DNA from: an uncultured cyanobacterium
GTDB lineage: Bacteria; Cyanobacteriota; Cyanobacteriia; CAKZMO01
Length of the DNA: 64,000 nucleotides
Assembly: GCA_963719515.1 (NCBI GenBank)
Contig: CAVRCJ010000001.1
Coordinates: 223,153 to 287,152 of the forward strand
Reading direction: 5' to 3'
Shown in pieces: positions 14,623-50,548 of the stretch (its first letter is position 1; every line of letters starts with the position of its first letter). Under the pieces are notes generated by a model. That model was not told the origin of the DNA. It saw only the letters and a program-made list of their open reading frames with translations, and did not search any database. A program made the position numbers and the translations under genes.

Positions 14623-17195
14623 TTGAACAACCCCAGACCCACTACTTCAGAACTCCCTCTTCTAGAGACCAAGCTTTACCTCCCGCAATGGTCTGCTGAC
14701 TTAGTATCGCGCCCAAGACTCATTGATCGCATTCACCCGCAGCGCAAATTAACCCTGGTCTGCGCCCCAGCAGGTTTTGGCAAAACGACACTGCTAGCAG
14801 AATGGGCAGCAGCCGTACCAACAGGGCCCGTTGCCTGGGTTTCCTTAGACCAGAGTGACAACGATCCGGCTGTTTGCTGGACCTATCTGATCACTGCTCT
14901 GCATAAAATTCGGCCCAGCCTAGGTGAGCGATCGCTCGCGTTACTGCAATCACCACAGTCCCCTCCAATTGAGCCGGTCTTGATGACGCTGCTCAATGAA
15001 CTTACTGCAGTTGAAGAGTCTGTTGTCTTGATCCTTGATGATTACCATGTGATCTCAACCCAGGCCATTCATGACGGGGTCGGTTTTTTTCTCAGTCATT
15101 TGCCGCCCCAAGTGCATCTAATTATTGCCAGCCGCGCTGACCCGCCTCTGTCTCTGGCGCGTTTAAGATCCCACAAAGAATTGACCGAGCTTAGGGTAAG
15201 CGATTCGCGGTTCACCCCGGCGAAGCTGCCGCTTTTTTGAACCAGGTGATGGGATTGGAGATTTCGGCAGCAGAAGTTTCCGCCTTGGAGCAGCGGACCG
15301 AAGGCTGGATTGTAGGACTACAGCTCGCGGCGCTGTCCCTACAAGGGCATGAGGACGCTGCTGGTTTTGTGGCGGCTTTTTCGGGAGACGATCGCTACAT
15401 TGTGGACTATCTGCTGGAAGAAGTTTTGCAGCGGCAGCCCGATCGCGTTCGTCACTTTTTGCTGCAAACAGCCATTTTGGAACGTTTGAGCGGTTCTCTA
15501 TGTGATGCCGTTACCGGCCAAGCCGGTGGACAGGAAATGCTGGAAGCGCTAGAGCGTGGCAACCTGTTTATCATTCCGCTGGATAACAAGCGCCAGTGGT
15601 ACCGATACCATCACTTGTTTGCCGATGTTCTTCAGGCCCATGCCCTGATGGAGTGGCCAGAACAGATACCCAGCCTGCACGGACGAGCAAGTGACTGGTG
15701 TGAGCAGAACGGCTTGTTCTTTGATGCAATTCGTCATGTCTTGGCCGCCCAGGACTTTGAGCGAGCAGCAGGTCTAATAGAGCAGGTGTGGCCTACCATG
15801 CGTCGGCGTCAGCGAGAAGCCACTGTACTGAGCTGGATCAGGTCACTCCCTGACTCCCTGATTCGCAACCGGCCCGTCCTCAGCGTTGCCTACGCCCTAG
15901 TGCTGCTGAACGATGGCCAGCTAGACGCGGTTGAATCCCATCTGCAGGACGCAGAACGATGCCTGGGAGCGGACACAGCCGTAGATTCACAGGAGCCGCT
16001 AGCGGTTGGGAGCGCTGTAATGGACGACGCACAGTTGCGGTCTTTACCCGCCTCCATTGCCAATGCCCGCGCCTATCGGGCTCAAGCGCTGAAGGATGTG
16101 CCCAGCACTGTGGCTTACGCTCAGCAGGCCCTCGAACTGTTGCCAGAAAATGAGGAATACGAGCGCGGCACAACCGCAGCCCTGCTTGGGCTCGCCTACT
16201 GGACCAGCGGCAGGCCAGAAGCCGGCTACCGTTCCTTTGCTAAGGGTCTGGCAATTTTCAAGCAGATGGGCCTCCCCCAGATGGCCATTGGCGGCACCTT
16301 GATCTTGGCACAGATGAGTATGGCCCAGGGGCGTCTCCACCGGGCAGCTAATATTAGTGAGCAGTCCTTACAGCTGGCGATAGAGCAGGGCGGCCCGGTG
16401 CTGCCGGGCACGCCAGAACTGTATTTGGCCTTGAGTGAAGTGCGCTACGAACAAGGCGATCTGGCGGCTGTCAGTCAGCTACTGCTGAGCGGTGAAACGC
16501 TACGTCAGCAGGCTTCGCTATCGGGGGCTGCCTATCTTTGGTGGGCGGTACAGGCACGATTAAAAGCCGCCGAGGGCGATCTGGAGACTGCCCTCGACCA
16601 GCTTCATGAGGCCGAGCGGCTCTACGCCCGAACGCCTATTCCAATCCCAGATGTGCGCCCGATTGAGGCTTTAAGGGTACGGTGGTGGCTGCGGCAGGGA
16701 AGATTGGCCGAAGCGCTGGGCTGGGTGCGGGAGTGCGGTTTGTTGGCGTCCGACCCGCCGAGCTATCTACACGAATATGAACACCTGACTCTGGCCAGCG
16801 TTGAGATCGCTCAGTACAGGCGTAATGGCACACAGGATGGACAGACGGCGAGGGAATGCATCAGGACTACGATGATTGATTGCTGTCCGCCGCTGAAGCC
16901 CAAGAGCGCACTGCCAGCATGATCGAAATTCTGGTGGTTCTGGCTCTCGGCGAGTAGCGGCTCAGGGTGATCTCCCGGCGGCATGGCCAAAGACCGGCCT
17001 TCGGCCATCGCATCGCTAGAACGGGCCTTGCTCCTGGCTGAACCGGAGGGACATGTTCGCATCTTTGTAGAACATGGAGCACTGATGGTGCTACTGCTGC
17101 GGGAGGGGAGTCGCACCACTCACGCATCGCTCCATGGATGTTTCAGCAGCTATTCGACGCCCTTAAACCGGGGCCGCTCCAAGAAGAGGTACTGA
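14623..17195 (+). pseudogene. MalT-like (LuxR-family, STAND ATPase) transcriptional regulator with multiple frameshifts and C-terminal decay
   Basis: Walker A VCAPAGFGKTTLLAEWAA, and Walker B VLILDDYHV. A single-base deletion near 15220 (expected ...TPAEAAAFLNQVMG reads TPAKLPLF*). A second cluster of frameshifts lies at 16930-16990 (LAEPEGHVRIFVEHG is in another frame). No LuxR HTH is found at the C-terminus. Confidence 0.65.
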
Positions 17196-19889
17196 TGGCT
17201 GCTGGAGACCTGCTTCGAGCAACCCTGAATCGTTCTCCCTCTCAGTCAAATGAGAAACTGTCTCTTCCTCCGACGTCACCAAACACTGAGAAGTTCCTGG
17301 CTCGAAAATAGCTGTGAGCTGGTCTGTGGGCTTTGAGCAACAGTGGTATGGACACCAAGTGGATTGCAGCAAACTTAATGTCACGAATCGTTGTTGAGCT
17401 GCTTGGCGAATCGAGTGAGCTAGATTTGATTCAGCGAGTACTCTCTCGGATCATTTTGACAAGACTTGCTCAAATTCTCACGTCTAATCCCACCATGGGG
17501 GTACAATGGTTTCCTGAGTACCGTTTGTATCTTTGAGCTGTTAATGCGAACCGCGGTCGAGAGCAGGTGAGAGCACTTTGATGAATCAACTATGCAATCA
17601 GCTCATAAATCTGTCACCCACTTGAACAGTACTAGATTTGTATCAAGGGACATTTTGATTGTCGTTGGAGCGTGGCTTGGGGACTTGTGGATCGCGCCAA
17701 GGAGTACGGTGAACGCTGTTGATCTGTCCAGTGGTTGATCAGGTAGTGCTTGATGGAATTGTCGATTAAGGTACGTAATTTGGGACTGCCGCTGGTCTCG
17801 AAAGTCACGCTGACCAAATCCTATGAACAGTAATATTTCCAGAACATCCAAAATGAAGAATGACGATGAATTCTACAGAAACAGATGCTCATAATGAAAA
17901 TGAAAAGCGAAGCTCTCGGCGCTGTGGATGTTTTATCTTCAATACGATATTTTTGCAGATCCATGAATTGATCCAGTGGATTTATGGAACAAATGATGAT
18001 GGGACACTTCAATGGAATTCAAATCACAGAACAACTGTCGCTGTTTGGTGGTCTGGTGGCAGAAGGTGCCATTGCTATGGGTGCTTCTCCTCCACTGTTC
18101 GCTGGATGGTGGTAAATCGTTGGGCTAACATCATCGACCGCTGTGATGACCCTTGTGTTTGAAATCAATAATGGTACTACTGATTTAGACGATACCTTTT
18201 GACTACTCCAGAGAAATCTGCTGCTTCGTCCTTCATTGTCTTGGTCGGCATGGTGGTGGCGAAGTCTGATACGAAGTGTGATGAATGAGTCAGGAAGCAT
18301 TAGCTTTCAAAATAAAATGCCGATATTTAGACACAATAGGAGAAATTAAATGTGATTAAAGGAAGAACTTGTTGTTGTGGGTAAAAGTTCAATTTGAGTT
18401 AATTAAGTGCCCACAATGATGGGTATGTGCCATTGCAGCCTATGTTGAAAAAGTTGGCGTGAGCACTCTCGTATTTGTCAAGGTCGTAAGATTTCAGATT
18501 TAATAAGGTAGGTGTGATCAAATATCTATCTATAAAGCTGAATCTCAGCATAAGATCGATTGCTGTTTTTGCTTGGCTGCGGTTCTGCATGGAGAGGTGT
18601 TGTCAGAAAATGATTCATTTCCTTTGGCGGTCAACTGCATAGACGGGGATATTGGACTTGAAAAGATAGTTTTCATGAAATTGTTTGGGAAATGCTGCCA
18701 AACTTGCACACTGTACAGCAATTCTGATTCAGCATCGATTCAAATCATAAGTGCAATGATCGACCGCCTCAATCTTCCCGTTCGCAATGTTCTGGCACAA
18801 GGTGACAACCAACGTCACGTCAACCCAGGAGTTGAACCATGACTCAAGCGGCCCAATTTTGGGACAAGGTTGCAAAAAGTATTCCAAACAGCTGATTGCT
18901 GATGAGCTGGAATTTATCAGAAAAGCTAGTGGTTACTGTGACTACTCTTCGGCCCCATATGGAAGTGTTGGAATCGGCTGCGGTACGGGTCAATGGCGAT
19001 CCTCCACGCCCCCTATTTGAAGTATATCGGCGCCGTTGATTTCTTCTGCCAATATGATTGTGATTGCCCAGGGCAAGGCCAAGCACATCGATAATGTGAC
19101 CTTTCTGAACAAGCCACCATTGAAAGATCTCGAATAGTCCTGGTTGGAGTCTAGATGCGGCGTCAGGTTTCAGCATTTTGCATCTTCTAAAAAACAAAAA
19201 GAAAGAACGTATCGCTCAGGTGATCAAGTTACTCAGGTGGTCTCTTCGTCACGAGTACTGTCCGCAATGGGGGACACCATGGAGCTGGCTCAAGCTCATC
19301 GTGCTAATTGGCTCAATTCCTCGGAATCTTCCGTTCGCTTCAGGTTATTACTGTGCAAGCACTGGCTGACAACTCTTATCAGGCTGCATTCTAAATGGGA
19401 TGACCAATGGAACCGAACAAGGGCAAGGGAGTGTTCATTGTGGCCAGAAACCTGAACAAACTATGAACGAAACTGAATCAACAAAGCGTCTAGTCTCTAC
19501 ACCAAGAGGGTTCAATTTAGCCATGCTGTTAAAGACAGCAATCTCAACATTAGAACGCTGGAAGCCGCTCCTGAGTGTCGACATGCTTCTACGCACTGAC
19601 GATGTATCTGCCCCTCAATGGAAGAACAAATTTAGCCGCTCTTGGTCAGCTCTGCAATGATCATCTGCTGTTGAGTCAGGCCGCGCGCCTCTCTTACTCT
19701 ATTCATCTTAGCTACTTGTTAAAATTCTCACCGGCCGGGGTAGGAATAGGAGCCTTCAGTCTTGCAACTTCTCAGAAAAGACTGCCTCAGTCAGCCCATG
19801 CTCCGGTGTCGATATTTCTGACGGCATGATCCAGCCTACTTAGGTTAAAATAATTCCTGAAAAATCGCTGACGATACTTTCTACTCTGA

Positions 19890-20030
19890 CAGATGCGGGG
19901 CAGATTAGGCGCTGACCCTTTGCCGATGAGTCCTTCGACGCGGTCATTTTTCCGCCCATGTTTTGGAGCAGATATGGCCGAACCCGTAGAAACGCTGCGT
20001 GAGATGATTGAATTCTGAAACCAGGGGCTC
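19890..20030 (+). pseudogene. class I SAM-dependent methyltransferase fragment (frameshifted)
   Basis: PFADESFDAVIFPP (Methyltransf_11-type motif) then a frameshift; AEPVETLREMIEF continues in another frame. No full-length gene is present. Confidence 0.35.
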
Positions 20031-30004: not shown

Positions 30005-30554
30005 TTGCGGTTTGCCCTCTCGCTGCTGAGCCGGGCTACTCGGGCGCAGGGTGAAGTGGAGCTGGTTCCTCAGGTTTCGGTTGAGGATTTGGTCGTTGAG
30101 CAGCTGGCCTGGCGCTCGGGCGAAAATCCAGACGGGCTGTCTGTCTGGTCGGCTGTATGGCGAGCCGTTAGGGATAGCGATCGCGGCTCGTTTGGCGGGG
30201 AATTACGGGGGTCGTGGCCGAAGGTTAAGGCCAGTGGGTTATCGCGATCGCAGCTGGCGCGGGTCGTTGATTATATGCAGGCGAATTTGGCGCGGGATTT
30301 ATCGGTTTTCGATTTGGCGGCTTTGACAGGGATGAGTGAGTCTCCTTTGCTCGCTCTTTCAAGCGATTGGCGGGGGTGTCGCCCTATCGATATTTGTTGC
30401 GGCTGCGGGAGGACGGGCGAAGGTGCTGTTGGCGGGGCGATCGGTTTCGATTAGCGCTGTTGCTCTGGATTGTGGGTTTGCGAATCAGACGCGTTTGACA
30501 AAGGTTTTTCGGCGGGTGATGGGGGTGACGCCTGGAGTTTATCGAAGGCGGTGA
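30005..30554 (+). pseudogene. AraC-family regulator C-terminal HTH fragment (frameshifted)
   Basis: LSRSQLARVVDYMQANLARDLSVFDLAALTGMSESP (first HTH), and ...VALDCGFANQTRLTKVFRRVMGVTPGVYRR (second HTH) in another frame. A ~35-bp piece (cagacgggctgtctgtctgg) recurs at 37800. Confidence 0.5.
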
Positions 30555-30585
30555 TTTAGAGGATGTCAAATCTGCGCACTGTAGA

Positions 30586-30669
30586 GGTAACAGTCACGCT
30601 CACCGGGCGCAGACAACCTTTGCGGCACGACCGAAGTTTTGGGTCGTTCCGGTGACGCGGTTGTTAGAC
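30586..30669. repeat. attC-like imperfect palindrome (GGTAAC-agTCACGCTCACCG ... CGGTGACGCGG-ttGTTAGAC)
   Basis: Outer cores are reverse complements (..TAAC / GTTAGAC) with inner inverted repeats. It sits exactly at the high-GC to AT-rich transition. Confidence 0.45.
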
Positions 30670-31790
30670 TCTTGGTGGGTTGCAGGTAATTAGCTGGTAA
30701 TCAACGATTCATGGTTTTCCCAGTTTTACCTCTAGTTTCTGTGCGAGCTCTGCTGCATCTGTAGCTTTTAGCTTTCCAATATCGAAATATTGCTTACTGC
30801 CGAACATCCTCCTGAACTTGCTTGACAAGATTAGTGGGATGCATATCATCCAATATAAATACCCTTACTGGATACCAAGATTCTCCAATTTCTTGGCGAC
30901 ATTTTATCGCAATCTGAATCATATCTTTTTCTAATCGGCTGACATTCGCTCCACAACAGACTCGCTTCATCTTCGTCTTCAGATTCCGAATCTACGACTG
31001 CTCGATTCGCGATACTTGTTCGACACATTTGTTGCGATATGCCCCAAAGTACAACTACGACGATGATTATAGGCTCCAGTTTGTGCTGGACAAGTGTATA
31101 TCTTTGTGTTCAGTACATATCAAACTTCCCTGTGCAGTTTACGACATCCAAGCGATACCTCCAAGACGGCAGCAAGCTATTTTCATCAAATATTGCGCCC
31201 AAATCTGAACTGCATCAATCAGATTTTTCGGCAGATAAGGCAACTGAATTGCTTGAAGAAATTGTTCAAAACTAACAAATGTAAAAGCAATACCCCTTCT
31301 TTAGCCTTGATTTCAACGTCCCGTAAAACCGGGTAGTTTGCTCGATGTTGCTGCTCAAAGTTGCCTAAAGCTATAAGTATTCTCTCTCCTTGCCTTGCTT
31401 CCGATATCTGTCGATGGGCTGGAAGACGTTCTTCCCCGAATCGCTGCCAAGCTTTGTCTCGATCAAAGTGAGAACGATCTTGAAAATTTCACCATCTGGC
31501 ACGCTGTCTTTCCCACGGCGCTGTTGAATGAACTTTACACCTACCGTTCCTGAAAAGCTTTCACCGATAGTAATCCTCGTGCTCCGAGAGAAATTTCGGA
31601 TTCTCTTGGTTCAGCATCTTAGAATTAAAAGACAGTGATTTGTTGTTTGATTTTCTCTCTGCCAGTAAGTTCGGAACAGACGTATGCTTCGACCCCGTCG
31701 TTTGTCGTTGTTAAGTTGACTAGAATGTCGATTCTACTTTCAAGCTCCTAGCTGATTTCTTAAATTGTACGCAGTCGTTGATTTAAGAGG

Positions 31791-31872
31791 GCTAACGTTC
31801 GGGTCACGGTTATCAGGATCTTTACGTCTTATCAAGCGGGTATGGTAATCTACTGCACCCGAATTGTTATGC
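31791..31872. repeat. attC-like imperfect palindrome (GCTAACgttcGGGT ... ACCCgaattGTTATGC)
   Basis: Same architecture as the sites at 30586, 47675, 50549, 53042 and 54290. Confidence 0.45.
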
Positions 31873-31884
31873 GGCGTCGTTGAC

Positions 31885-31930
31885 AAAGTGCGGGGTAGGG
31901 GAATCGAACCCCTCAGCGTTGCTCTTGGAT
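31885..31930 (-). other. tRNA 3'-half-like sequence (T-arm AGGGG-TTCGATT-CCCCT plus acceptor 3' strand ACCCCGC-A), not a complete tRNA
   Basis: GGTTCGATTCC T-loop consensus on the reverse strand. No matching D-arm or anticodon arm could be folded upstream. Confidence 0.35.
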
Positions 31931-32039
31931 GAGGCACTCTTCCGAACCTACACCGCTCCCAGTACATCTGGGTAGTCATCACGACCTCCGCAGCACCGCT
32001 CCCCGCATGAACCGACCGACGTATAGACAACAGGTGCAA

Positions 32040-32628
32040 TCATAAGCCCCTCCTTAATGTTGGTGAACAACGGAACCATTCGTGCACTGTTGAGCAGCCC
32101 TTAAGTACTCCAGAAGTACCCGTATCACCAAGATTTTGGGAAGGCTTGAGTACCAACCACCCCCATGATGTTGTAATTCTAGCTTTCCAACTGGACTCGA
32201 CACAACTGTTGTAGATGTATTTAAATGCTTTATTTCTTCTTGCAATTCTCTCAAACCACCTCTCAGCGGTCAGTGCTCCCGCCCCACTGATGCGGTGCTG
32301 TCGACAAGGGTTCCCACATCCCGTTGTCCGGGTTTGCGTACCATTCGTTGAGAATGAGAATTGCTCCGAACGATAAACCCAACCCAACTCCAGCAGCAAG
32401 TCTCGAGCAAAGGAAAGCGACCCACTGTGGGATCTCGTTTTTGTCCTCAGAGACCTTCTCCAGAAATACTGCTGCTCTCGAGAAAGTTGCCCAAATTCCC
32501 CCGAAAATAGTTAAATGTTCACTCTGAGTAAGGATACCTCCAGACGGAAAGCGAAGCGTGATGATGATGAAGGGAATGAAGATGATGAGCCCCTCGACAG
32601 CATACAGAATTTCTTTGGGTTGTCTCAT
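32040..32628 (-). CDS. hypothetical small membrane protein (AT-rich putative cassette gene)
   Basis: 121 aa with 3 hydrophobic segments. It is the only long ORF in AT-rich block 30700-32750 and is transcribed away from the attI-like site. Confidence 0.4.
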
Positions 32629-32790
32629 CTTCCTCCTCGTGCCTCCTCCATAAATTTTCTATTCATTTTTGTAGGATCTCTTGATGAGAAACTCTGAAAT
32701 ATCAGCGTCCCAATGACCTGAGTTAACATAACGCTATATGCAAAAATAATAACCACTTAGCTATTATCTCAACTGGAAGAAAGCGGCATA

Positions 32791-33020
32791 ACTATATATT
32801 CAACGTCAGATCTGACGGATAACACCCTGCTTCCCAGATCTTATCAGGCATATCTGACGGATAACACCCTACTTTCCGTGATTATTCACCGCATCTGACG
32901 TCTAACTCCGGGAATCTAGGGTGTTATCCGTCGCTCTTGTCTGATAACCATGGGTTCTAGGGTATTATCCGTCACTTTTGTCAGATAACACCCCATTTAG
33001 CGGTGTTATCCCGTGATTAG
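32791..33020. repeat. attI-like array: six copies of (C)TGACGGATAACACCC(T) in direct and inverted orientation, directly upstream of the integrase-remnant start
   Basis: Homologous arrays occur at 54431-54660 (6 copies) and, degenerate, at 35450-35520. The conserved left border is caactatatattcaacgtcagatctgacgg. Confidence 0.6.
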
Positions 33021-33022
33021 CC

Positions 33023-33103
33023 ATGTCGTCATCCCAGCCTCCTCGCCTGCTCGACCAAGTAAAGCAGGTGCTTCGTACAAAGCAATTGCAGCCTCACAAC
33101 TGA
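33023..33103 (+). pseudogene. integron-integrase-like tyrosine recombinase, N-terminal 27-codon remnant
   Basis: MSSSQPPRLLDQVKQVLRTKQLQPHN* compares with the IntI/XerC N-terminal ..LLDQVRE.IR.KHYS.RTE. A stop follows, and no recombinase catalytic domain is downstream. Confidence 0.5.
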
Positions 33104-33159
33104 GGAGTCCTACATCCACTACATCCACGAATTCATCCTATTGCACGGCGATCGCCCCA

Positions 33160-33365
33160 CAGCAGAACTCCAGAACAAGCCAGCAGAACTGCCGAGTCGG
33201 TCTACAGAACTCCCAAGCAGCTCAACAGAACTCCCGAGCAGCATTTTAGAACTCCTGAGCAGGTCAGCAGAACTAGCGAGCAGCACTACTCAACTCATTA
33301 GCAGCTCAACAGAACTCCAAAGCAACAATTTAGAACTGCTAAGCAGGTCAACAGCACTCCTGAGC
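33160..33365. repeat. ~10 tandem 21-bp repeats (cagaactcc.gagcag.....)
   Basis: Visible periodicity. Homologous array at 54836-55045 is in a different reading frame, so it is not protein-coding. Confidence 0.6.
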
Positions 33366-33513
33366 CGCGATCGCCCCCCCAAAGCGATCGCCCTCCCAAA
33401 GCAGAAAACCATCCCCACCCTCTTGCCAAGCCGCGCACAAATGTCCTACCTTATGGAGCTATGAGCCACAACCCATGGTTCTAGTCTCCCAAAGATTCGG
33501 TCTGGGCGGAGCC

Positions 33514-33535
33514 GCATGTTGTATGCGCAACATGC
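33514..33535. other. conserved hairpin GCATGTTG-n6/7-CAACATGC in module leader
   Basis: The stem is identical and the loops differ (tatgcg / ttgatcc / tgacac) in the three module copies (33514, 35689, 55157). Confidence 0.5.
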
Positions 33536-33674
33536 AGCCCCTAAGCCCCCACGACAGACACTGGCTGTCGGGAACGGCCTGGAGTAATGATATTACCCGG
33601 CCATCCCAAAACCAAAAACGTCGCGGATGTCCGGTCGGCGGGGGGCTCCAATTAACTCAAAAACGGAGTCCCTC

Positions 33675-34022
33675 ATGACAACTCAATATCATTCGCTGCC
33701 TCCCAAGGCGGCACAGTTCGCAGCGCCCCAAAACCCCGCTGCGGAACCCGCAGCGCTGCGGTTAGACTCCCCCATGGAAGCCGAACCCGCTATCTCCACG
33801 CTGATTGAACCCTCCCCAGCGCCGGGCTGCGAGCATTTGCGCCACATCATCATCGGCTCCCCCGAAGGCGTGCGCCAAGCCATCAACCGGCTGCACGTGC
33901 TGCAGTACGTCGAGTGGCGGCTGTGGACCCCGCTGATTGCCATCGGCGAAAAAGGCGTCCACATCACCCCCACCCAAGGCCAAGTGCTCAGCTACCTCAT
34001 CCAGCAGCGGCCTATTCAATAG
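33675..34022 (+). CDS. conserved hypothetical protein, module copy 1 (115 aa)
   Basis: MTTQYHSLPP...CEHLRHIIIGSPEGVRQAINRLHVLQYVEWRLWTPLIAIGEKGVHITPTQGQVLSYLIQQRPIQ. A GGAG ribosome-binding site lies 7 bp upstream. Paralogues are at 35851-36198 and 55317-55691. Confidence 0.6.
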   Translation: MTTQYHSLPPKAAQFAAPQNPAAEPAALRLDSPMEAEPAISTLIEPSPAPGCEHLRHIIIGSPEGVRQAINRLHVLQYVEWRLWTPLIAIGEKGVHITPTQGQVLSYLIQQRPIQ

Positions 34023-34119
34023 CTAGCCCCAGTACTTCACAAAATACTCTGACTGCGATTTAGGGAGGGGAGGAAAGGGGGTAGAGTCAGGCTACCTAAA
34101 ATCGAACTTTAGCCATGTC

Positions 34120-34536
34120 TCAATCCCCTTCTTCAGTTAGAAATTCTTCAGGAGAAAGTGCGGAAACCAGGGACTTTGTAAAATCTGAACCATTTCGGGT
34201 GATGATCGCCGCTGCCCCGCTTGCTGTAGCGGCTGCGCTAGTGACCGCGTCCTCAAAGTCCACCATGGTACTTTTAAGGGCCGTATGAATTACCGATTCT
34301 GTGATGCTAGCCACTTCAAGAATTTGCGCGATCGCCGAGAGAAGCCGGATAGCCTCTTCCCTGCCGACTTTACGGCGCAGGATATAGAACATATTCGTGA
34401 CTGCATGGCCAGCAACCATTCCCTCGTTACCGGGTACAGTTGCCCAGGTCAAAGCCTTCGCAGATTCAACCACGAAAGGTTGACGTTCCATCAACACATC
34501 CAGCAGAACATCACTATCAAAAAGAACTCGCTTCAA
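34120..34536 (-). CDS. PIN-domain (VapC-like) toxin
   Basis: MKRVLFDSDVLLDVL..., ...D..TSAAATASGAAAIITRNGSDFTKS; acidic residues at PIN positions. Confidence 0.7.
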   Translation of the reverse strand: MKRVLFDSDVLLDVLMERQPFVVESAKALTWATVPGNEGMVAGHAVTNMFYILRRKVGREEAIRLLSAIAQILEVASITESVIHTALKSTMVDFEDAVTSAAATASGAAAIITRNGSDFTKSLVSALSPEEFLTEEGD

Positions 34537-34790
34537 CCGTATTTCTTCTCTAGATAATCAATGTATGATGCTTGAGAATCTTGATCATCAAGTGGAACAG
34601 CGCCAACTAGACTCTGTACTAAGGGATGTAGCTCAGCCTTCCACGATGAATCAGGCTCAGGAACTTCTCGCGAAATGGAGTGGGGTTTCCTGAGCGACTC
34701 AAGCAAGCGAATCGCTACCTGCAAGCGCTCTTCTTGAGATAGCTGGCTTGCCGCTGCTAAGACTTCCTGGGCCGTCATATTTTCCTCCAA
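34533..34790 (-). CDS. putative antitoxin / addiction-module component
   Basis: An 85 aa protein (MTAQEVLAAASQLSQEERLQVAIRLLESL) encoded immediately upstream of, and overlapping by 4 bp, the PIN gene. Confidence 0.5.
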   Translation of the reverse strand: MEENMTAQEVLAAASQLSQEERLQVAIRLLESLRKPHSISREVPEPDSSWKAELHPLVQSLVGAVPLDDQDSQASYIDYLEKKYG

Positions 34791-35443
34791 GAACGATTGG
34801 CGGCTAGCTCTCGTACGGTTATTGGCGAGTAGGTCTTAATCGGCGTGAAGAGTTCGTGTTTACCAAGCTGTGCAAAGAGCGGGCCATCTGCGCTGAAGGA
34901 TGATGACTTTGTAAGGGTATCGAGGCGGAAGTCGCGCCGCTGAAATTTGCCCTTACCCAAGTAGCCCCACTCGGCAAAGGTAATTGGCTGACCAGAATGC
35001 GTGCGCATTGTCAGCGCGTCACCATGTACGAGGTTTTGCGATAGCACATAGGACGTAGCCCAATAGAGATCGTCCTCGTCATTTAGACTCAGGTACTCGG
35101 CAAAGATCGATACCATATTGGCGCGGCACTCAGCGATATTGTCCGCCAGTAGCTCAATTCCATAGGTACACATCAGCGCGAGCAGCGCGTAGTGCCGTCG
35201 CTCAAAGTCAGACTTACCATACTTGAGCTCTACAGCGGCGAGCTTGCGCTGAACCACCTGCACCAGAAAGTTGCCGCTGCCGCACGCCGGCTCTAGAAAG
35301 CGAGAGTCAATGCGCTCTGTCTCGTCTTTTACTAGGTCCAGCATTGCTTCCACCATCCACGGTGGCGTAAACACCTCTCCGTGGTCGGCAACACGCTGCT
35401 TGGACTTGACGTAGTTCATAGGCTGACGCTCTGCTGTAGTCAT
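34775..35443 (-). CDS. N6-adenine DNA methyltransferase-like protein, apparently truncated (N-terminal half only)
   Basis: Motif X-like VFTPPWMVEAMLDLV and motif I LEPACGSGNFLV. No (N/D)PP(Y/F) motif was seen within the 222 aa. Confidence 0.45.
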   Translation of the reverse strand: MTTAERQPMNYVKSKQRVADHGEVFTPPWMVEAMLDLVKDETERIDSRFLEPACGSGNFLVQVVQRKLAAVELKYGKSDFERRHYALLALMCTYGIELLADNIAECRANMVSIFAEYLSLNDEDDLYWATSYVLSQNLVHGDALTMRTHSGQPITFAEWGYLGKGKFQRRDFRLDTLTKSSSFSADGPLFAQLGKHELFTPIKTYSPITVRELAANRSWRKI

Positions 35444-35850
35444 TGTGGGCTAACTATATAACCAACACCTATTCAATAACACTCTACTTTCCCAAATCTT
35501 ATCAAGCAATTCTGCTAAGTAGTACTATTATATCTTTTGCGATCGCCCCCCAAAAGCGATCGCCCCACACCACACCACAAAAAACCGCCCCACCCTCTTG
35601 CCAACCCGCGCACAAATGTCCTACCTTATGGAGCTATGAGCCACAACCCACGGTTCTAGTCTCCCAAAGATTCGGTCTGGGCGGAGCCGCATGTTGTTGA
35701 TCCCAACATGCAGCCCCTAAGCCCCCACGATAGGAGTTGGCTATCGGGAACGGCCTGGAGTAATGATATTACCCGGCCATCCCAAAACCAAAAACGTCGC
35801 GGATGTCCGGTCGGCGGGGGACTCCAATTAACTCAAAAACGGAGTCCCTC

Positions 35851-36198
35851 ATGACAACTCAATATCATTCGCTGCCCCCCGAGGCGGCACAGTTCGCAGC
35901 GCCCCAAAACCCCGCCGCGAACCCATCCACGCTGCGGCTAGACTCCCCCATGGAAGCCGAGCCCGCTATCCCCACCCTCATCGAGCCCTCCCCAGCGCCG
36001 GGGTGTGAGCACCTACGGCACATCATCATCGGCTCCCCCGAAGGCGTGCGCCAAGCCATCAACCGGCTGCACGTGCTGCAGTACGTCGAATGGCGGCTGT
36101 GGACCCCGCTAATTGCCATCGGCGAAAAAGGCGTCCACATCACCCCCACCCACGGCCAAGTGCTCAGCTACCTCATCCAGCAGCGGCCCATCCGATAG
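35851..36198 (+). CDS. conserved hypothetical protein, module copy 2
   Basis: About 85 percent identical to copy 1. It follows the same leader and hairpin (35689-35711) and a degenerate attI-like stretch (35450-35520). There is no integrase remnant and no 21-bp repeats. Confidence 0.6.
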   Translation: MTTQYHSLPPEAAQFAAPQNPAANPSTLRLDSPMEAEPAIPTLIEPSPAPGCEHLRHIIIGSPEGVRQAINRLHVLQYVEWRLWTPLIAIGEKGVHITPTHGQVLSYLIQQRPIR

Positions 36199-36282
36199 CC
36201 GTCGGAACGACCCGCGATCGCCCCCAGAGCCGCCCACCTGGCCTCTAGGCGGCGATCGCCACCCCATCTCCTGCTCTGATAT

Positions 36283-37650
36283 CTATAGGGTTGCCAATAT
36301 CTGCCGCGCCTGTTCAGGGCTAGGGAGCCTGTAGCTGCTCAAAGACTTCTCTTTTTCCCACAGCCACTTTTCTCCCGCCGTCAGCACGACCTTAGCTGCA
36401 ATCTGCCAATCGCTAGGTATCTCCAAGCGATTGCCCTGCTCCCAAAGCGCCCGAAACGTTGTCAACCCATTCATATCCATAATCAGCTTCAGCGCAGCGG
36501 CCCCTACCGCACCAAAGTTGTGTGTATCGAAGCCATAGAACAACCCATCATAGTGAAGAAAGACCGCATCTTTACCCGCCCCCTGAGGCCGTCTGGCATG
36601 AACGCCCCGTTGGACGGTCAGTGGATCAGTTCCCCACAGTTTTGGCTGAGACAGATCCCACTCTGAGCGATCGCTCATCGCCGAGTAATGAATGTAGGCC
36701 GGGCCATCGGGCCAGCCCCGCACCGCATTCCCGATTGTCAGCACGGTCAGGTGCTCGCGCAAAAAGCCCTCTACCTCTGCAAGGCTCTCCCCACGCTGAT
36801 TCACAGATATCTGAATATATTGCTTCAGGGCCTGGCAAAGTTCTGTAGACGACCGACTGTAGGCTAGCCAGACTAGCGGCTGACGGGCAGACTTGCTTGC
36901 CTCCAGCAGCTGAATCGCATGCTCTCCAAAGATTGTGCGGACACGGCCATACATCGATAAGATCGTTTCAATGCGATCGCGCTGCCGGCGATCAAACACC
37001 GCCGTGTCTTCCCGCAGCTCTGGCATGATGCCAGCCCCTTCTAGCTCCGGTCGTTTCACCTCTACAAACACCCGGGTCTCTGCCTGCAGCGGCACTACAG
37101 CTTCTCCCTGGTCCATGTCACTTCCCAAATGCATATGAGCCATCTGGATGCCTAAAATGGGCTGATACTGCTCTTCTAGTCTCTGCAGGGCCGTCTGTTC
37201 TCCTTCCCAACCCGCTTTAACGCTATGCAGCGTATTTAGCCCTGGCGTGAAAATGACCTGCTCCCCATTGTCCTGGGTTCCAAAATTCAAGTGGTTTCTA
37301 ATAAACTGCAGCGGCTGAGGCTGAGCCATCACCCGCTCAAAGAAGACTGCTGCCCCGTTCTGGTCAGGAATCGAAAAGTGCCCGCAGTACCCCTCGTCGT
37401 AGCTAGCCGTAAAAGCCATTTCCCGCAGCTCTGGCTTCTCCATATCAGCCTGCCTGACTTGAATATCCGCAGGCAGGTCCGCACCAAACAGCTTTTCTAG
37501 ATTACTGAGCGTTGGTTTAAGCGCAAACAGCTGGTCTTTGGAAAGGCCCAGGTTGAGCAGAGCCGTTATCTCCTCAACCTCTGTATTGCGATCTTCCGCT
37601 GGCCGAGGCGTTGCTTGATGACGAAATTCTTTATTCATGGGCGTTTGCAA
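36283..37650 (-). CDS. hypothetical protein (455 aa, no recognisable motifs)
   Basis: A long uninterrupted ORF with coding-like composition. Confidence 0.45.
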   Translation of the reverse strand: MQTPMNKEFRHQATPRPAEDRNTEVEEITALLNLGLSKDQLFALKPTLSNLEKLFGADLPADIQVRQADMEKPELREMAFTASYDEGYCGHFSIPDQNGAAVFFERVMAQPQPLQFIRNHLNFGTQDNGEQVIFTPGLNTLHSVKAGWEGEQTALQRLEEQYQPILGIQMAHMHLGSDMDQGEAVVPLQAETRVFVEVKRPELEGAGIMPELREDTAVFDRRQRDRIETILSMYGRVRTIFGEHAIQLLEASKSARQPLVWLAYSRSSTELCQALKQYIQISVNQRGESLAEVEGFLREHLTVLTIGNAVRGWPDGPAYIHYSAMSDRSEWDLSQPKLWGTDPLTVQRGVHARRPQGAGKDAVFLHYDGLFYGFDTHNFGAVGAAALKLIMDMNGLTTFRALWEQGNRLEIPSDWQIAAKVVLTAGEKWLWEKEKSLSSYRLPSPEQARQILATL

Positions 37651-38854: not shown

Positions 38855-39259
38855 TCAACCTGTCACTAAGCCAAATACAAAGCTGCCAAGGGCCAAGAAA
38901 AATCCAATCCCCCAAGCAAAACTTCGAAAAGGCGTTATCCCAGCCGCATAGAGCAAAAGATGAAGCAGTCGGGTGATAAAGAAAACGACTGCAGCGGCCT
39001 GCGTCCATACGTTTGAAACACCTGCCACCGCGGCAATCAGAATCAGCGGAGCAAACAAAGACAGACCTTCAACATGATTCCGAACGGTTCGAGTCAGGCG
39101 ACCATGTAAAGGTGTCGCTCCCTTAAAGTTGTGATCCTGCTCCCGGTTAGATAAAGCATACTTGGCGCCCACTGCTTTATCGAGAGCAATCTGTTGAGCA
39201 AAAATGGTCAGCCATAAAGTTGCAGCAGCACCAAGCAGGGCCCAAAGTTCAATAGTCAT
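38855..39259 (-). CDS. MAPEG-family membrane protein
   Basis: 134 aa, 4 hydrophobic helices, ..HGRLTRTVRNHVEGLSLFAPLIL.. pattern. Confidence 0.55.
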   Translation of the reverse strand: MTIELWALLGAAATLWLTIFAQQIALDKAVGAKYALSNREQDHNFKGATPLHGRLTRTVRNHVEGLSLFAPLILIAAVAGVSNVWTQAAAVVFFITRLLHLLLYAAGITPFRSFAWGIGFFLALGSFVFGLVTG

Positions 39260-39398
39260 GATTTTTCCTTGAAAACGGCAGCTAGTTGTGTTGCGGAACT
39301 AGAGTTTTGATACCTTGAGACATTTCGCGGAGATACCAAAAGGATAGGGATACTTTGGAGAAGAAATACTATTCCTTTGGTTATTCAAATACGTGACT

Positions 39399-39596
39399 CT
39401 AGCCGAATATCTGACCACCCACGGCATAGCCCCCTTCAGCCGTTTCCTGAATATGAACATTGATAAACTGCTTGATATCTCCCTTACCAGACTCCTTCGC
39501 CACAGTATTCAATGCTTCAGTAAAAAGCTCAACAATTTTGGCTTTTTCTGCTTTGTTCCAAGCTTTTTGAGGAACAGTCAATCTGATCGTAGGCAT
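39399..39596 (-). CDS. 4-oxalocrotonate tautomerase-family protein
   Basis: MPTIRLTVPQ... start (catalytic Pro1); 65 aa. Confidence 0.65.
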   Translation of the reverse strand: MPTIRLTVPQKAWNKAEKAKIVELFTEALNTVAKESGKGDIKQFINVHIQETAEGGYAVGGQIFG

Positions 39597-39719
39597 GATT
39601 CGATTTCCTTAAGATGATTTGATGACATTGGGCAACAAGCTCTGTGATAGATGGCCATAGCCATTAATCAACAGTTGTTGCAACAGAAGCTGTACAAGCT
39701 TCAGATGTGATTCAGCAGT

Positions 39720-40199
39720 TTAGGAAGCGATCGCTTCGACTGGAAACTGAACTTCCACCACCATTTCTCCCTTATGGCCAGGCTCCGGTGGCACAATAAA
39801 GACCTCTCGACCTGGTCCAGTTAGTCTGTATTGATGGTTTTCTGCCCAGGTACCAATGGCGCTGTAAGAGAGATGGCCATTTTCAGGGCCCCCAAATCGC
39901 ATAGCCGTCACCGCCGTGGAAACGGCAGGTAATTCTCGGACCTTCATCACGGCATCTTGGGAGATGGTAACGGTGAGATCGAGACTTTGATTGAGCGAGA
40001 AACCAAACTCCAAGTCCTAGTTAGACTCTTCATACAGCTCTCCATGGATCACCGCCGCAAAACGCCCCAATGCTTTAGCTTCAACCTGCTCGGCCACCGC
40101 CTGTCTCATTTGGGAGATGGCAGCGAGGGCTTCAGTCAAGTCGCTGCAGGTGCGCCGCAGTGAGAGAAATGGTTGGGCAGGCAGGCTTTTCAAGACCAC
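39720..40199 (-). pseudogene. GyrI-like small-molecule-binding domain protein, split into two frames
   Basis: ORF 40017-40199 (N-terminal half) and 39720-40013 (GPGREVFIVPPEP...EMVVEVQFPV) are separated by a frameshift. Confidence 0.45.
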
Positions 40200-47422: not shown

Positions 47423-47680
47423 CTAGGCACGATGGATTTGGGATTTCCGCTGGGTTTGGATTCGGAACGCTCTGAATCTCGATGATGAATCGGTATCAAC
47501 TCGTAGAATGTATTCCGCTAGGGGTGGCTTGAGGTGAGATGCCTCGGTAGCGAGCTCCTGTTCTAGCTGTGGGGGCAAATCCAAAGTGATGTTCACGGCC
47601 ATGCTCTCCTGCGACAGCTCTATTCTATTACTGCGCAAATTTCTGCGGGCTGACCTATGCAGAAGGAGGCTACCGCACAA
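47423..47680 (-). CDS. small hypothetical protein (possible ribbon-helix-helix-like, weak)
   Basis: A likely internal start gives MAVNITLDLPPQLEQELATEASHL. It overlaps the attC-like site at 47675. Confidence 0.25.
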   Translation of the reverse strand: MCGSLLLHRSARRNLRSNRIELSQESMAVNITLDLPPQLEQELATEASHLKPPLAEYILRVDTDSSSRFRAFRIQTQRKSQIHRA

Positions 47681-47760
47681 CGGTGAAGTGCAGCGGCGGC
47701 AGGCAAGCTTGAACGCTCACCGATAACCTCTGTACCGTCCGCACCAACGAAGTGTTAGGT
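47675..47760. repeat. attC-like imperfect palindrome (GCACAACggtgaagtgcaGCGGCGG ... CCGTCCGCaccaacgaagtGTTAGGT)
   Basis: Clear sequence similarity to site at 50549 (CTAACgttgaagctgaGCGGCGG ... CCGTCCGCTC..GTTAGGC). Confidence 0.5.
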
Positions 47761-47765
47761 GGCTG

Positions 47766-48119
47766 CTATTGATCTCGGTAACTTTTCGCATAATACAGAC
47801 AACCAATAAGACTACTTGCTCCTTCTGCAGCTGCTAAACACTCATAGCCTGTTTCATCCTGCGTAAAGTGTAGTTCAACTTTATTGACAAAGGTTCGCAA
47901 ACCAAGCAGAGCTTCTTCAATCTTTTCTTTAGTAATACTCAATAATGGTTCTGGATGATCTTGAAAACAAGTTTTTAGATCTGTATGAGCAACCCGACGG
48001 TTCCTATGCTTTCTTGCAAAGTCGCAGCTATTCTTTATGATCTCTAGCGTTTCTACCAACTCTGCTTTCAGTTGAACCAATGATATAGCAATCCTGTTTG
48101 ATTTATGGAAAGGAGCCAT
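47766..48119 (-). CDS. hypothetical protein (117 aa), 5' end abuts/overlaps the IS630 element
   Basis: The ORF-track frame 47766-48293 runs into the IS630 transposase gene in another frame. An internal ATG at 48119 gives MAPFHKSNRIAISLVQLKAE... Confidence 0.3.
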   Translation of the reverse strand: MAPFHKSNRIAISLVQLKAELVETLEIIKNSCDFARKHRNRRVAHTDLKTCFQDHPEPLLSITKEKIEEALLGLRTFVNKVELHFTQDETGYECLAAAEGASSLIGCLYYAKSYRDQ

Positions 48120-49160
48120 ACCTGTGCAGTTTGGGGAAATCGAAAGTATCCAACCTGAAGAACTGCTCAAACAGGGCTTTGAGTGCCGGAAACGATGGAC
48201 ACAACCCAGACATCCGCCTAAGCCAGGTCTTGCCTTGAAGCCAAGCATCTTCAATCGGGTTCTGAGTCGGGTCATTGGGGGCAAAACGAACACAGTGAAT
48301 CTTCCATTCTTCTTGCGTAAGCCCCTCGTTCACCTGGGCTAGATACTCCTTAAGCTCGCCAGAGCGATGATAGCTGGCCCCATCCCAAAGAATGAGTAAC
48401 CGCTGGTGGGGAAACTGAGCTTGTAAAGACTTCAGGTAAGCAATGGTACAAGCGGTGTTGCCCTTCTCATGCGCTTCGATAAATAACCGCTTGCTCACTA
48501 GGTCCACTGCCCCGTAGTAGGTTTGGCGCTCTCGCTCATTGACAACCGGCACTACCACCCGCTCATCAGTTCGCCCCCAAACATATCCTTGTAGGTCACC
48601 GCTCAGAAGGTGACACTCATCAAAGAACAGCACCCTCAGCTGCCCTTTGGCAATCGCCTCGCGGTAGAGCGCCAGCAGAGCGCAGATTTCGGCTTTTTTG
48701 CTGCCACCGCCTTAGCGTCCGCCTTGGGGTTGACCTTGCCGCTCTTCTTCCAGCTGATGCCAGCAGCCTCAAACAGGTCGTAGTAGCTTTGCTTCGACTC
48801 GTAGGCCACATCGTACACCTCAGCCAAGTGGTGCTCCAATTCGCTCAACTCCCAAATCGCCTTTTGCTGTAACCAGCTCAGCACCGCTGCCTTCTGCTGG
48901 GTCTCTAGATAGCTTTTTCGGCCCTTGTGCTGGGGCTTAAAGCCAGCTACGCCCCAGCTTTCGTAAGCTTGTTTCCAGTTGCTCACGGCTCCCATCGATA
49001 CATCGAGTATCCCGACGATCGCCTCATACCTATAGCCTTGGTAGAACAGCTTCACCGCTAGTGCCTTTTTCACTTGCCTGCCATCTCGTTGTTGACGGAT
49101 GAAGGCTTTGAGCTCCTCCACTGCAGCAGTTTTATTAGGTTTAGCGGGTGTCGTTAGCAT
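48103..49160 (-). mobile_element. IS630-family transposase (two ORFs joined by a putative -1 frameshift at A_AAA_AAG)
   Basis: N-terminal HTH ORF 48636-49160, and C-terminal DDE ORF 48103-48633 (FFDECHLL, LILWDGASYH, NDPTQNPIEDAW). The slippery heptamer aaaaaag at ~48690 puts ..AAKK/AEICALLALYREAIAKGQLRVLFFDECH in frame. Confidence 0.7.
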
Positions 49161-49310
49161 TGCTCAGGGCCTCTCAGTATCAGCGCTTTAGTCTCCTCCG
49201 TAATTATACTGGCCCTACTTCACGAATCACCTCGGATTGCTATAGGTCAACACTATCTAGTATTCTCGCTAAGGTTAAATTTTCTTTGTTGCCAGCTTTT
49301 GAAGAATCAG

Positions 49311-49541
49311 TTAAACGGCTAATTGACAAATTGACAAGATGATGTCATTCAAGAATACAGACTGACAAATACCAAAAAAAGTGGGGGCAGACTCATTTAG
49401 CAAATCAACTATTTCTTCATCTTCATATAATTGAGAAAACAAGAGCCATTTTAGATGTAGTTCTCCAAGCTCTTCCGAAATAGCTTGAAGCAATTCGTCT
49501 ATTTTCTGTGTCATTTTCTCAGCCTTTCGTCTTAAGATCAT
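49311..49541 (-). CDS. small hypothetical protein coupled (ATGA overlap) to the T5orf172-domain gene
   Basis: 76 aa, AT-rich, no motif. Confidence 0.35.
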   Translation of the reverse strand: MILRRKAEKMTQKIDELLQAISEELGELHLKWLLFSQLYEDEEIVDLLNESAPTFFGICQSVFLNDIILSICQLAV

Positions 49542-50395
49542 AGACCCATTTGTCGAATGTAATTTTGATCAGGATAAACATCTGGCTGTCCCATCCTTAC
49601 AACTCTATAAAATGCTTCATGAACTATTGCTGGAGGTTTATCATCAAAGCAATCACCAAAAGGAATTGGAAATCCATCAGGGTGTATTTCAATATCTTCC
49701 ATGAAGCCAATCATTTTGCCATACTGCCAACAATCAATGATACTAATTATTGAGAGTTCAGGCTCAAAGAGAGATAGTTGTTCGGAGCTAGATGTAAGCT
49801 TTGGTGAACCAATGATAACAACTCTATCGCCAGGATATGTGATTGTGACTTCACTGAGAGAGCCTGGAATGCAAGAATCATTTGCTAACTTAATTAAGCT
49901 TGAAGGATCATCTTCAGATCTAGTCGTAAGTAGTATATGATCTCGAGCCTTGCAACCCCAAAAATTAATAGGTTTAGGTTTATCAGCCAACCAATTTTCA
50001 TATCTAAACAGGAGAATAATTCCTTTTGAATAGCAAGTCCATCGGAATGTAGTGTTTACATCCAACCTATGAATTCCTGCATGAATTGAGGTTGCGCTTT
50101 TGTCAAATTCTTCATAGACAACTTCTTCGACAGCCGATATTGCTTCTTGCAGAGGTATCACAAAAAATTCTCGATTAGCCTTATATCGATACTTCTTTAA
50201 TTTTTGATGAATTAATTTTTCAGCTAAAACACAATCAGGGACATCTCTTTCGTAACAAATGCTAAATTGTTCAGGCAATCCTGTTGTAAACAACTCTTTT
50301 ACCCTTTCCCGCACATTCCGCTCTGTTCTCCCGATCTTAAGCATGTTCTCAGGTAGTACAGAATTTTGCAGAATGTAAACAGAACCCGCAGACAT
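49538..50395 (-). CDS. T5orf172 / GIY-YIG-like nuclease domain protein with unknown ~180 aa C-terminal domain
   Basis: N-terminal GSVYILQNSVLPENMLKIGRTERNVRERVKEL matches the T5orf172 pattern (YIL.N...KIG.T.R....R..EL). Confidence 0.55.
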   Translation of the reverse strand: MSAGSVYILQNSVLPENMLKIGRTERNVRERVKELFTTGLPEQFSICYERDVPDCVLAEKLIHQKLKKYRYKANREFFVIPLQEAISAVEEVVYEEFDKSATSIHAGIHRLDVNTTFRWTCYSKGIILLFRYENWLADKPKPINFWGCKARDHILLTTRSEDDPSSLIKLANDSCIPGSLSEVTITYPGDRVVIIGSPKLTSSSEQLSLFEPELSIISIIDCWQYGKMIGFMEDIEIHPDGFPIPFGDCFDDKPPAIVHEAFYRVVRMGQPDVYPDQNYIRQMGL

Positions 50396-50548
50396 TGAAT
50401 GCAGCCTCTTTTATGAACTGTGCTGGAGAACTCAGAGATACATCAATATATTTCCCAATTGAACGGATTCAGGAACAAGTCTTCAAATTATTCAACGTTT
50501 AAAGCTTACAGACAAGTTTCAAGGATGCCCTTGCCGAGGATTGAAGCC

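Follow-up and report, generated by a model that had tools for sequence, protein, structure and literature searches.

Organization of the locus

The window analysed here is a stretch of 64 kb (64,000 nt) from contig CAVRCJ010000001.1 of an uncultured cyanobacterium, with a GC content of about 54-57% and frequent GCGATCGC motifs (highly iterated palindrome 1, HIP1). About halfway along it lies an AT-rich block with two attC-like palindromes and, at its right-hand end, an array of short repeats followed by the beginning of an integron integrase gene (intI), which the original prediction had read as an integron-like unit. We call it unit A. It is very probably a sedentary chromosomal integron in decay, from a cyanobacterium that probably belongs to the Elainellaceae, and consists of an attI site and two minus-strand cassettes beside an intI that has lost all but about 49 codons. 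Its parts are as follows (ORF, open reading frame):

30585-30669, minus strand: attC-A2, last site of the array (R'' GTCTAAC at 30669-30663, R' GTTACCT at 30591-30585)
30591-31795, minus strand: cassette A2, 1205 nt, body 42% GC, ending in attC-A2
31790-31872, minus strand: attC-A1, divergent and weak (R'' GCATAAC at 31872-31866, R' GTTAGCC at 31796-31790)
31796-32791, minus strand: cassette A1, first beside attI, 996 nt, 48% GC, bounded by the attI G/TTATGC and the R' of attC-A1
32263-32628, minus strand: gene of cassette A1 (from the ORF list), coding for a hydrophobic protein (121 aa) from a rare family
32790-33170: integron platform, i.e., attI core, repeat array and N-terminal integrase stub
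32790-32809, minus strand: attI core, CTGACGTTGAATATATAG/TT, identical in units A and B and conserved in other genomes
32807-33011: attI repeat array, 205 nt, five units of 41-42 nt carrying GGATAACACCC
33023-33170, plus strand: intI remnant, residues 1-22 in one frame and about 20-49 in another

The slash marks the crossover here and below. The compositional contrast on which the prediction of an AT-rich block rested was confirmed: 30592-32791 has 45.5% GC, against 57% in both the left flank and the right-hand module. A second unit near 54.4 kb (unit B), to which the layout of unit A had been likened, does have a near-identical array, an intI remnant and four attC sites, likewise on the minus strand.

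The attI site and its repeat array

Aligning the arrays, which had been proposed as the way to the recombination point, placed the crossover of unit A at G/TT on the minus strand, between G 32792 and T 32791, a position that we infer from the conservation of the core. The minus-strand junctions read ...TATAG/TTATGC in unit A and ...TATAG/TTGTGT in unit B, in the G/TTRRRY form of an integron crossover. In other genomes, 15 attI sites have the core with 0-5 mismatches and keep the form CTGACGTTGAATAYATAG/TTRRSY. Past GTT, these sites and the two window copies share only R'-type bases (typically TTAGCC), followed by unrelated DNA; the junction heptamers include GTTATGC, GTTGTGT and GTTAGCC. The site is built as the attI of a complete integron is, adjoining the intI start, with a G/TTRRRY crossover and divergent DNA beyond it.

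Within 32817-33011, GGATAACACCC occurs in the six copies that had been predicted, three of them exact and three with one mismatch, in both orientations; elsewhere in the window it clusters only in the near-identical array at 54457-54651. In each unit of the array, half-sites of the TGACGGATAACACCC type form an imperfect dyad, which gives in total about ten GATAAC/GTTATC cores spaced by roughly 20 nt in alternating orientation. Each of the five tandem dyads resembles the core site of a tyrosine recombinase, with 11-nt arms and a 7-nt spacer, and the two attC covariance models described below produced sub-threshold matches inside the arrays, which for one of them (R2) were the next best after the six sites. 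We regard the repeats as putative IntI-binding sites.

The same attI occurs widely in cyanobacteria. An exact-pattern scan for two GGATAACACCC 29-33 nt apart, with one genome per species, returned 28 loci, 15 of them cyanobacterial (Egbenema, Nodosilinea, Phormidium, Kovacikia, Coleofasciculaceae, Leptolyngbyaceae and Elainellaceae). Array and core could be aligned over 17 sites (the two window copies and 15 from other genomes) in more than 12 cyanobacterial genomes, column by column along the whole ~230 nt. Wherever neighbouring DNA was available and still coding, the cyanobacterial arrays sit immediately upstream of an integron-integrase frame. Most of these frames are broken; nevertheless, some of the frameshifted or truncated intI genes behind the same attI, L009 among them, retain the IntI-specific patch ALERKYPNA..W.WQFVFP and the HxxR, GYDIRTVQELLGH and Y catalytic motifs. 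Intact homologues, annotated as 'integron integrase', are plentiful, and two have the same core and array upstream. These are the 322-323-aa integrases P0004 (Halomicronema, L029) and P0039 (metagenome-assembled genome (MAG) of Elainellaceae, L030), the former sharing 52.9% identity with IntI1 in an alignment that covers 99% of its length. On this alignment, the attI of unit A is homologous to that of complete cyanobacterial integrons.

Plasmid pB of Kovacikia minuta CCNUW1 (L035) carries a complete integron, with an annotated, more distant integrase (61% identical) and five attC sites of the family found in the window. At the position of attI (7780-7870) it has other direct repeats, with CAGCCTAAGATCCCAAA occurring twice, as would be expected if attI repeats were integrase-specific binding sites. 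This suggests, from the sequences compared, that attI repeats co-vary with the integrase clade. To our knowledge, attI sites are poorly described outside classes 1-3 and Vibrio; we found no description of this multi-repeat attI in the literature, where a search for the motif gave unrelated primer sequences only.

The identical 11-mer is also found in a MAG of Thiomargarita sp., where it forms perfect hairpins of the type GGGATAACACCCC-N5-GGGGTGTTATCCC (e.g., N5 = TCGCA) at loci L003-L005, L008, L014, L016, L020, L021, L023, L024, L026 and L027. They are arranged in tandem intergenic clusters with a period of 44-52 nt (in L027 e.g. 5333-5447, 5826-5940 and 6183-6423), which flank and interrupt an ORF (L027 5470-6243) resembling the transposase associated with repetitive extragenic palindromes (REP), known as RAYT. 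This would favour an array of REP or bacterial interspersed mosaic elements (BIME) spread by a RAYT transposase and unconnected with integrase, the 'attC' hairpins being further extragenic palindromes. The Thiomargarita loci do fit the REP/BIME pattern of high-copy dispersed palindromes flanked by a RAYT gene; the window does not, as its motif is confined to the two attI arrays, always equally far from where intI starts. Architecture and position of the array, between the G/TT junction and the intI ATG, are moreover fixed in over 12 genomes of cyanobacteria, the integrase of another clade (L035) has different repeats in the same place, and neither IntI nor attC of this family was found at the Thiomargarita loci. 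We consider a REP/BIME origin of unit A very unlikely.

Two further observations were made on the Thiomargarita hairpins: they sit between toxin-antitoxin pairs, and their half-site, 7-nt gap and tandem layout are those of the cyanobacterial attI array.

Two attC sites of a covarying cyanobacterial family

Since a naive scan for RYYYAAC..GTTRRRY stems showed no excess over shuffled sequence (14 in the window vs 9.6 in the shuffles), we used homology and covariance models instead. A strict cassette chain scan missed the bulged sites, although it yielded the Egbenema attC that seeded the family. Model R1 was built from six attC sites of other genomes and model R2 from twenty, neither including window sequence. 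On the window, R1 rose above noise at exactly six places, each of which is on the minus strand and falls in the interval from an attI to where an AT-rich block ends, and R2 recovered the same six (E 1.6e-11 to 2e-3; 1.6e-11 to 3e-9 for the four strong sites):

30582-30676, minus strand: attC-A2, unit A; R1 49.9 bits, E 1e-9; R2 47.5 bits, E 6e-10
31786-31879, minus strand: attC-A1, unit A; R1 19.2 bits, E 0.03; R2 23.8 bits, E 0.001
47671-47767, minus strand: unit B; R1 40.4 bits; R2 53.6 bits
50545-50640, minus strand: unit B; R1 44.9 bits; R2 47.3 bits
53038-53135, minus strand: unit B; R1 37.1 bits; R2 44.9 bits
54286-54380, minus strand: unit B; R1 15 bits; R2 22.7 bits, E 0.002 (54286-54382)

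Both palindromes of the original prediction thus have R'' and R' boxes where it placed them and are recognised, as imperfect palindromes, by covariance models made from sites of other genomes, on the strand that the orientation of attI predicts. In the fold of the family, an unpaired spacer (~6 nt) separates the R box (TAAC/GTTA) from an L stem whose R''-L'' arm has two single-base bulges. The six-site consensus has compensatory changes at eight pairs. The twenty non-window sites show 88% pairing, compared with 24-50% in slid controls, and double changes at 14 pairs; these sites were aligned to the model, so that the pairing figures lean toward the structure. Model R1 also detects three new attC sites in the complete integron L030 and the five of the Kovacikia plasmid, and it matches, with 20.3 bits, the canonical attC of aadA5 in a class 1 integron, located between that gene and qacEdelta1.

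The outer site, attC-A2, has its crossover between G 30591 and T 30590 and is homologous to cassette-side sites in six other loci (Egbenema, Phormidium, Coleofasciculaceae and Leptolyngbyaceae), with the right orientation in each. The inner one, attC-A1, pairs only in the R box and a 7-bp stem around a 47-nt unstructured centre, and its R1 score is near that of the functional aadA5 attC (20.3 bits). The proposed folding check was successful for one site only: as DNA, attC-A2 folds better than shuffled sequence (z -2.4 to -2.8), whereas for attC-A1 z is about 0. Their sequences and modelled structure place both sites of unit A in this conserved, covarying attC family.

Operators typically have regularly phased repeats between divergent genes, and together with the naive stems being no commoner than in shuffles this would suit an array that is the operator or iteron set of a host DNA-binding protein controlling the divergent genes, next to terminators that look like attC by chance. 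Terminators, however, would not have 80-90 nt of homology and covarying stems across cyanobacterial families, nor would they match the starts of cassettes (see below); the palindromes have no T-runs, and the terminator scan does not call them. Regulation and recombination are also compatible, as the attI region of class 1 integrons holds promoters too. An operator array with chance palindromes is, in our judgement, hardly credible here.

Cassette junctions, cargo and flanks of unit A

The reading of unit A as a decayed integron makes a prediction on its cassette junctions. The first bases of a cassette (TTRRRY) derive from its own attC, so that the R'' of that attC should be complementary to the start of the cassette. 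The six cassettes of units A and B compare as follows:

A1: start GTTATGC, own R'' GCATAAC, match 7/7
A2: start GTTAGCC, own R'' GTCTAAC, match 6/7
B1: start GTTGTGT, own R'' ACACAAC, match 7/7
B2: start GTTATGC, own R'' GCATAAC, match 7/7
B3: start GTTATGC, own R'' GCCTAAC, match 6/7
B4: start GTTAGGT, own R'' ACCTAAC, match 7/7

Complementarity extends over 22 of the 24 variable positions, a value that the cognate order alone attains: of 720 permutations (mean 14.8) six reach it, all of them ties among identical heptamers. The cassette junctions follow the R''/R' complementarity rule, and the DNA is organised in cassettes as in a complete integron. With attI, attC and junctions all as an integron would have them, the integron interpretation of the original prediction was borne out.

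The clear ORF that had been described at 32040-32628 proved to be two: the gene of cassette A1 (32263-32628) stands, and the remainder belongs to an overlapping ORF in another frame (32040-32399). Homologues of the A1 protein form 21 clusters of 130-176 aa, matching its residues 2-111, and its C-terminus is probably damaged. Two homologues adjoin restriction-modification (RM) or Shedu-like defence genes. No relative of the A1 gene was found in another integron, one context being a contig (L036) too short and without attC and the other a defence island. Cassette A2 has only short broken ORFs, none longer than 80 aa, and no Pfam match, so its cargo gene looks decayed. In unit A the single intact ORF, and in unit B the ORFs of the cargo, share the minus-strand orientation of their cassettes.

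At its outer end the array meets the chromosomal flank:

30005-30554, plus strand: frameshifted gene of an AraC-family regulator

The AraC-like sequence (57% GC) is spread over three overlapping frames, and its last 72 aa match HTH_18 (E 7e-12) and HTH_AraC. Its stop codon (30552-30554) lies 30 nt from the last R' box, which places the outer palindrome, as predicted, at the composition boundary with this decayed gene.

A tyrosine-recombinase remnant at one edge of a low-GC block could also indicate a genomic island, inserted at a tRNA or transfer-messenger RNA (tmRNA) gene by an integrase of the phage or integrative and conjugative element (ICE) type, with the palindromes as att remnants or terminators. 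Inside the block there is in addition a fragment resembling a T-arm/acceptor, GGGGTTCGATTCCCCTACCCCGC. An insertion of this kind should lie in a tRNA or tmRNA gene with a duplicated 3' end; in the window ARAGORN found neither gene, Rfam gave only a 17-nt match to cyano_tmRNA at chance level (E 2.4), and the AT-rich block has no flanking direct repeats. The remnant aligns with integron integrases, and relatives carry the IntI-specific domain; nor would an island be expected to consist of two units that are each closed by an attC with an R'' matching the start of the unit. We hold such an island to be most improbable.

The tRNA-like fragment, which resembles the T-arm and acceptor 3' strand of a tRNA or tmRNA, lies in cassette A1 at ~31885-31910 (minus strand). 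Rfam returned nothing meaningful on the whole window at gathering thresholds or on 30400-36400 at a relaxed E-value. Other AT-rich blocks of the window (7000-10000, 17000-20000 and 39000-40000; 43-50% GC) have neither a match to the attC models nor an attI core and, by these sequence features, are not integron units of this family.

The integrase remnant

The predicted N-terminal remnant of the integrase, at 33023-33103, was confirmed and extended. The 26-codon ORF from the ATG at 33023 to the stop at 33103 encodes MSSSQPPRLLDQVKQVLRTKQLQPHN, and reading continues after a frameshift as TTEESYIHYIHEFILLHGDRP to about 33170. The rejoined 49 aa match Pfam PF13495 (Phage_int_SAM_4, E 3e-6) and, in alignment, correspond to residues 1-49 of intact integron integrases from cyanobacteria; a protein search with them had as its sole match another remnant, of 46 aa. 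From residue 50 on, the gene is deleted, catalytic domain included: the intI of unit A is destroyed. Searching the whole window by tblastn with the intact P0004 and P0039, we obtained matches only to this stub and to a shorter remnant at 54663-54758 in unit B. Compared with a complete integron, which has an intact IntI with its additional domain, the window has no such protein, and the domain is present in relatives that share this attI. Unit A falls short of the definition of a complete integron on the integrase alone.

With two attC sites 1.2 kb apart and no functional intI in the window, unit A corresponds to a cluster of attC sites lacking integron integrases (CALIN), defined by at least two attC within 4 kb and no integron integrase. 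It is a pseudo-integron, i.e., a CALIN with attI and intI remnant.

Paralogous platforms in the window

The platform is part of a larger module, made of attI, intI remnant, a 21-nt tandem repeat, a leader of ~240 nt and a small gene, which occurs at 32.8, 35.5 and 54.4 kb with different cargo behind each copy. Of the three attI-like arrays that had been predicted, two are full, whereas the third (copy C, at 35451) is a truncated attI that retains only its first ~70 nt and has lost most of the array. The features of these modules are:

33163-33365, plus strand, and 54813-55044: 21-nt tandem repeat, consensus CAGAACTCCCGAGCAGCTCAA (Tandem Repeats Finder)
33405-33645, 35581-35820 and 55051-55284: conserved ~240-nt leader upstream of the small gene
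33627-34022, 35803-36198 and 55203-55691: small module gene, 115-131 aa, no Pfam domain
34026-35453, minus strand: unit C, with truncated attI, junction GTTATATAG/TTAGCC at 35453/35452
47671-54758, minus strand: unit B, with attI crossover at 54432/54431, array 54447-54651 and intI remnant 54663-54758 (plus strand)
47766-48293, minus strand: unit B cargo, HEPN AbiU2
48103-49160: IS630-type transposase, split in two ORFs, inserted in the last cassette of unit B
49538-50395, minus strand: unit B cargo, T5orf172/GIY-YIG-like protein
50791-52680, minus strand: unit B cargo, dynamin-like GTPase of 629 aa
53123-54256, minus strand: unit B cargo, DUF3800 protein

Copy A (32790-34025) and copy B (54430-55694) share 86% identity. 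Their similarity begins abruptly at AACTATATATTC; to the left of the core (32790 and 54430, respectively) the sequences are unrelated. The cargo of unit B is of defence type, and its first cassette (54431-54296) has just 136 nt and no gene. Unit C is located directly downstream of the small gene of copy A, and an N6-adenine-methyltransferase-like gene (222 aa) and a toxin-antitoxin pair (Unstab_antitox antitoxin, PIN_3 toxin) make up its cargo in between. Neither R1 nor R2 recognised an attC in the unit C stretch; a near-miss R'', GGCTAAA at 34113-34107, may be an attC relic.

Translation of the 21-nt repeat, which is located between intI and leader, gives a heptad-like ORF (33141-33464 in unit A; ELxSxST...); the repeat is conserved in position, being found downstream of intI remnants also in L011 (1110-1433) and L025 (6804-7103). 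In unit A the right-hand part of the platform, leader plus small gene, spans 33405-34022 on the plus strand. The stems of the leader are kept between copies and the loops differ (GCATGTTG-loop-CAACATGC), one stem with compensatory change (CGACAG..CTGTCG vs CGATAG..CTATCG); this pattern suggests that the leader, which has no Rfam match, may be a structured RNA. The small gene is always the right-hand end of the module, whose similarity ends at its stop codon. Its products are 77-94% identical among the three copies and belong to a family of 36 proteins, in which every member with a named source comes from Elainellaceae or an unclassified cyanobacterial MAG. In L011, too, it is situated downstream of intI, and behind the intact intI of L030 there is a weak relative; it could be an integron-associated accessory gene.

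A metagenome contig of the same strain (L031), 99.1% identical to the window, has the same arrangement. A contig from the same sample (L033) carries a further full module, with an intI that keeps 46 N-terminal and about 20 C-terminal codons. Relative to it, copy B shows an additional deletion; that in copy A is not the same and ends at a HIP1 site. The difference between these deletions indicates that the two copies decayed at least partly independently. We also considered that the platform was duplicated after inactivation of the integrase, a claim that we rejected as unprovable; A and B lost intI by different deletions.

Interpretation of unit A

The following mechanism draws on established integron biology. 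The cassettes of unit A would have entered as circles through recombination catalysed by IntI between the double-stranded attI, cut at G/TT, and the folded bottom strand of attC, which in the window would be the plus strand. The GGATAACACCC-type repeats may have served as integrase-binding sites on which the attI synapse is assembled, like L, R, DR1 and DR2 of attI1. Today, cassettes could be exchanged only with an intact IntI made elsewhere in the genome; otherwise the array would be frozen.

Several points weigh against reading unit A as a decayed integron. An intact integrase is absent from the 64 kb by tblastn, its C-terminal part was found nowhere, and activity cannot therefore be claimed. 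Binding of the repeats by IntI is something that we only infer, and the same palindrome is REP-like in Thiomargarita. The scan with promoter and terminator consensus sequences did not identify a Pc promoter; near the array it gave only weak sigma-70-like sites (9-10 of 12 positions). Of the two attC sites, attC-A1 is weak (19-24 bits in the two models), with its unstructured centre and a fold no better than shuffles, and the attC models are family-specific and were built in this analysis. Cassette A2 lacks an intact gene, and the comparison for cassette turnover, like that for synteny in related genomes, is with one near relative only, the contig of the same strain 99.1% identical to the window.

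A more far-reaching possibility is that the attI of this clade is a new, unusually elaborate type, kept base for base in many genera even beside decayed intI, and that orphan platforms duplicated with the small gene are independent docking sites served in trans by one surviving integrase, forming a distributed integron. We regard this as doubtful; were it true, the REP-like palindromes of Thiomargarita would indicate either that the two systems have a recognition module in common or that they exchanged it horizontally.

As a decayed integron, unit A is a real but fairly ordinary case, since this type of decay is common and the kind of element known. Mildly novel are the multi-repeat attI that spans genera and the three platform copies within 25 kb. 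The exact recombination points of unit A are now fixed, and some 2.2 kb of unit A and about 6.8 kb of the unit at 54 kb can be annotated as integron cassettes, some of defence type, and not as anomalous AT-rich DNA. As by-products, the analysis provides a covariance model for cyanobacterial attC sites, a consensus at base level of the multi-repeat attI, which integrons of more than 10 genera have in common whether intact or decayed, and a genome with several platform copies, each with different cargo. The conserved array lends itself to experiments on binding and recombination.

Comparison with known systems

Integrons have been documented in Cyanobacteria (PMC2426708, PMC4889954). Close to a third of the surveyed intI genes were pseudogenes, more than one intI was present in 20% of integron-bearing bacteria, and pseudo-integrons arising by intragenomic duplication were described (PMC2426708). 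CALIN are common, with an intI pseudogene recognisable near only 5% of them and absent at 95% (PMC4889954); unit A, unlike most, keeps both an intI pseudogene and attI.

The closest counterparts are the pseudo-integrons and CALIN with an intI pseudogene (Nemergut 2008, PMC2426708; Cury 2016, PMC4889954; Xanthomonas), which like unit A have an attC array and attI beside an inactivated intI. Unit A differs from them in its extreme remnant, 49 of 322 codons, and the window differs in having three paralogous platforms within 25 kb, two of them in tandem, with different cargo and with the same small downstream gene at every copy.

With attI1 of class 1 integrons, the site shares a crossover at the G/TT of a GTTRRRY-type core, at the edge farthest from intI, and extra GTTA repeats resembling integrase sites between core and intI. 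In attI1 there are four sites (L, R, DR1 and DR2) in about 65 nt, while here about ten half-sites form five dyads over 205 nt; unlike in attI1, the repeat sequence is exactly conserved across many cyanobacterial genera, and its binding is putative. The superintegron of Vibrio cholerae, with its V. cholerae repeats (VCRs), is similar in having an attC sequence family, here common to cyanobacterial genera, cassettes that are AT-rich relative to the host, and toxin-antitoxin or defence cargo (units B and C). It differs from the arrays of the window, which are tiny (two and four cassettes), have no working integrase in cis and, in one case, a divergent attC. Among the complete cyanobacterial integrons, those of Halomicronema and the Elainellaceae MAG (L029, L030) share the attI core and array with unit A, and the latter and that of the Kovacikia plasmid (L030, L035) share its attC family. 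All three have an intact intI of 320-323 aa, unlike unit A, and the attI repeats of the Kovacikia integron are different.

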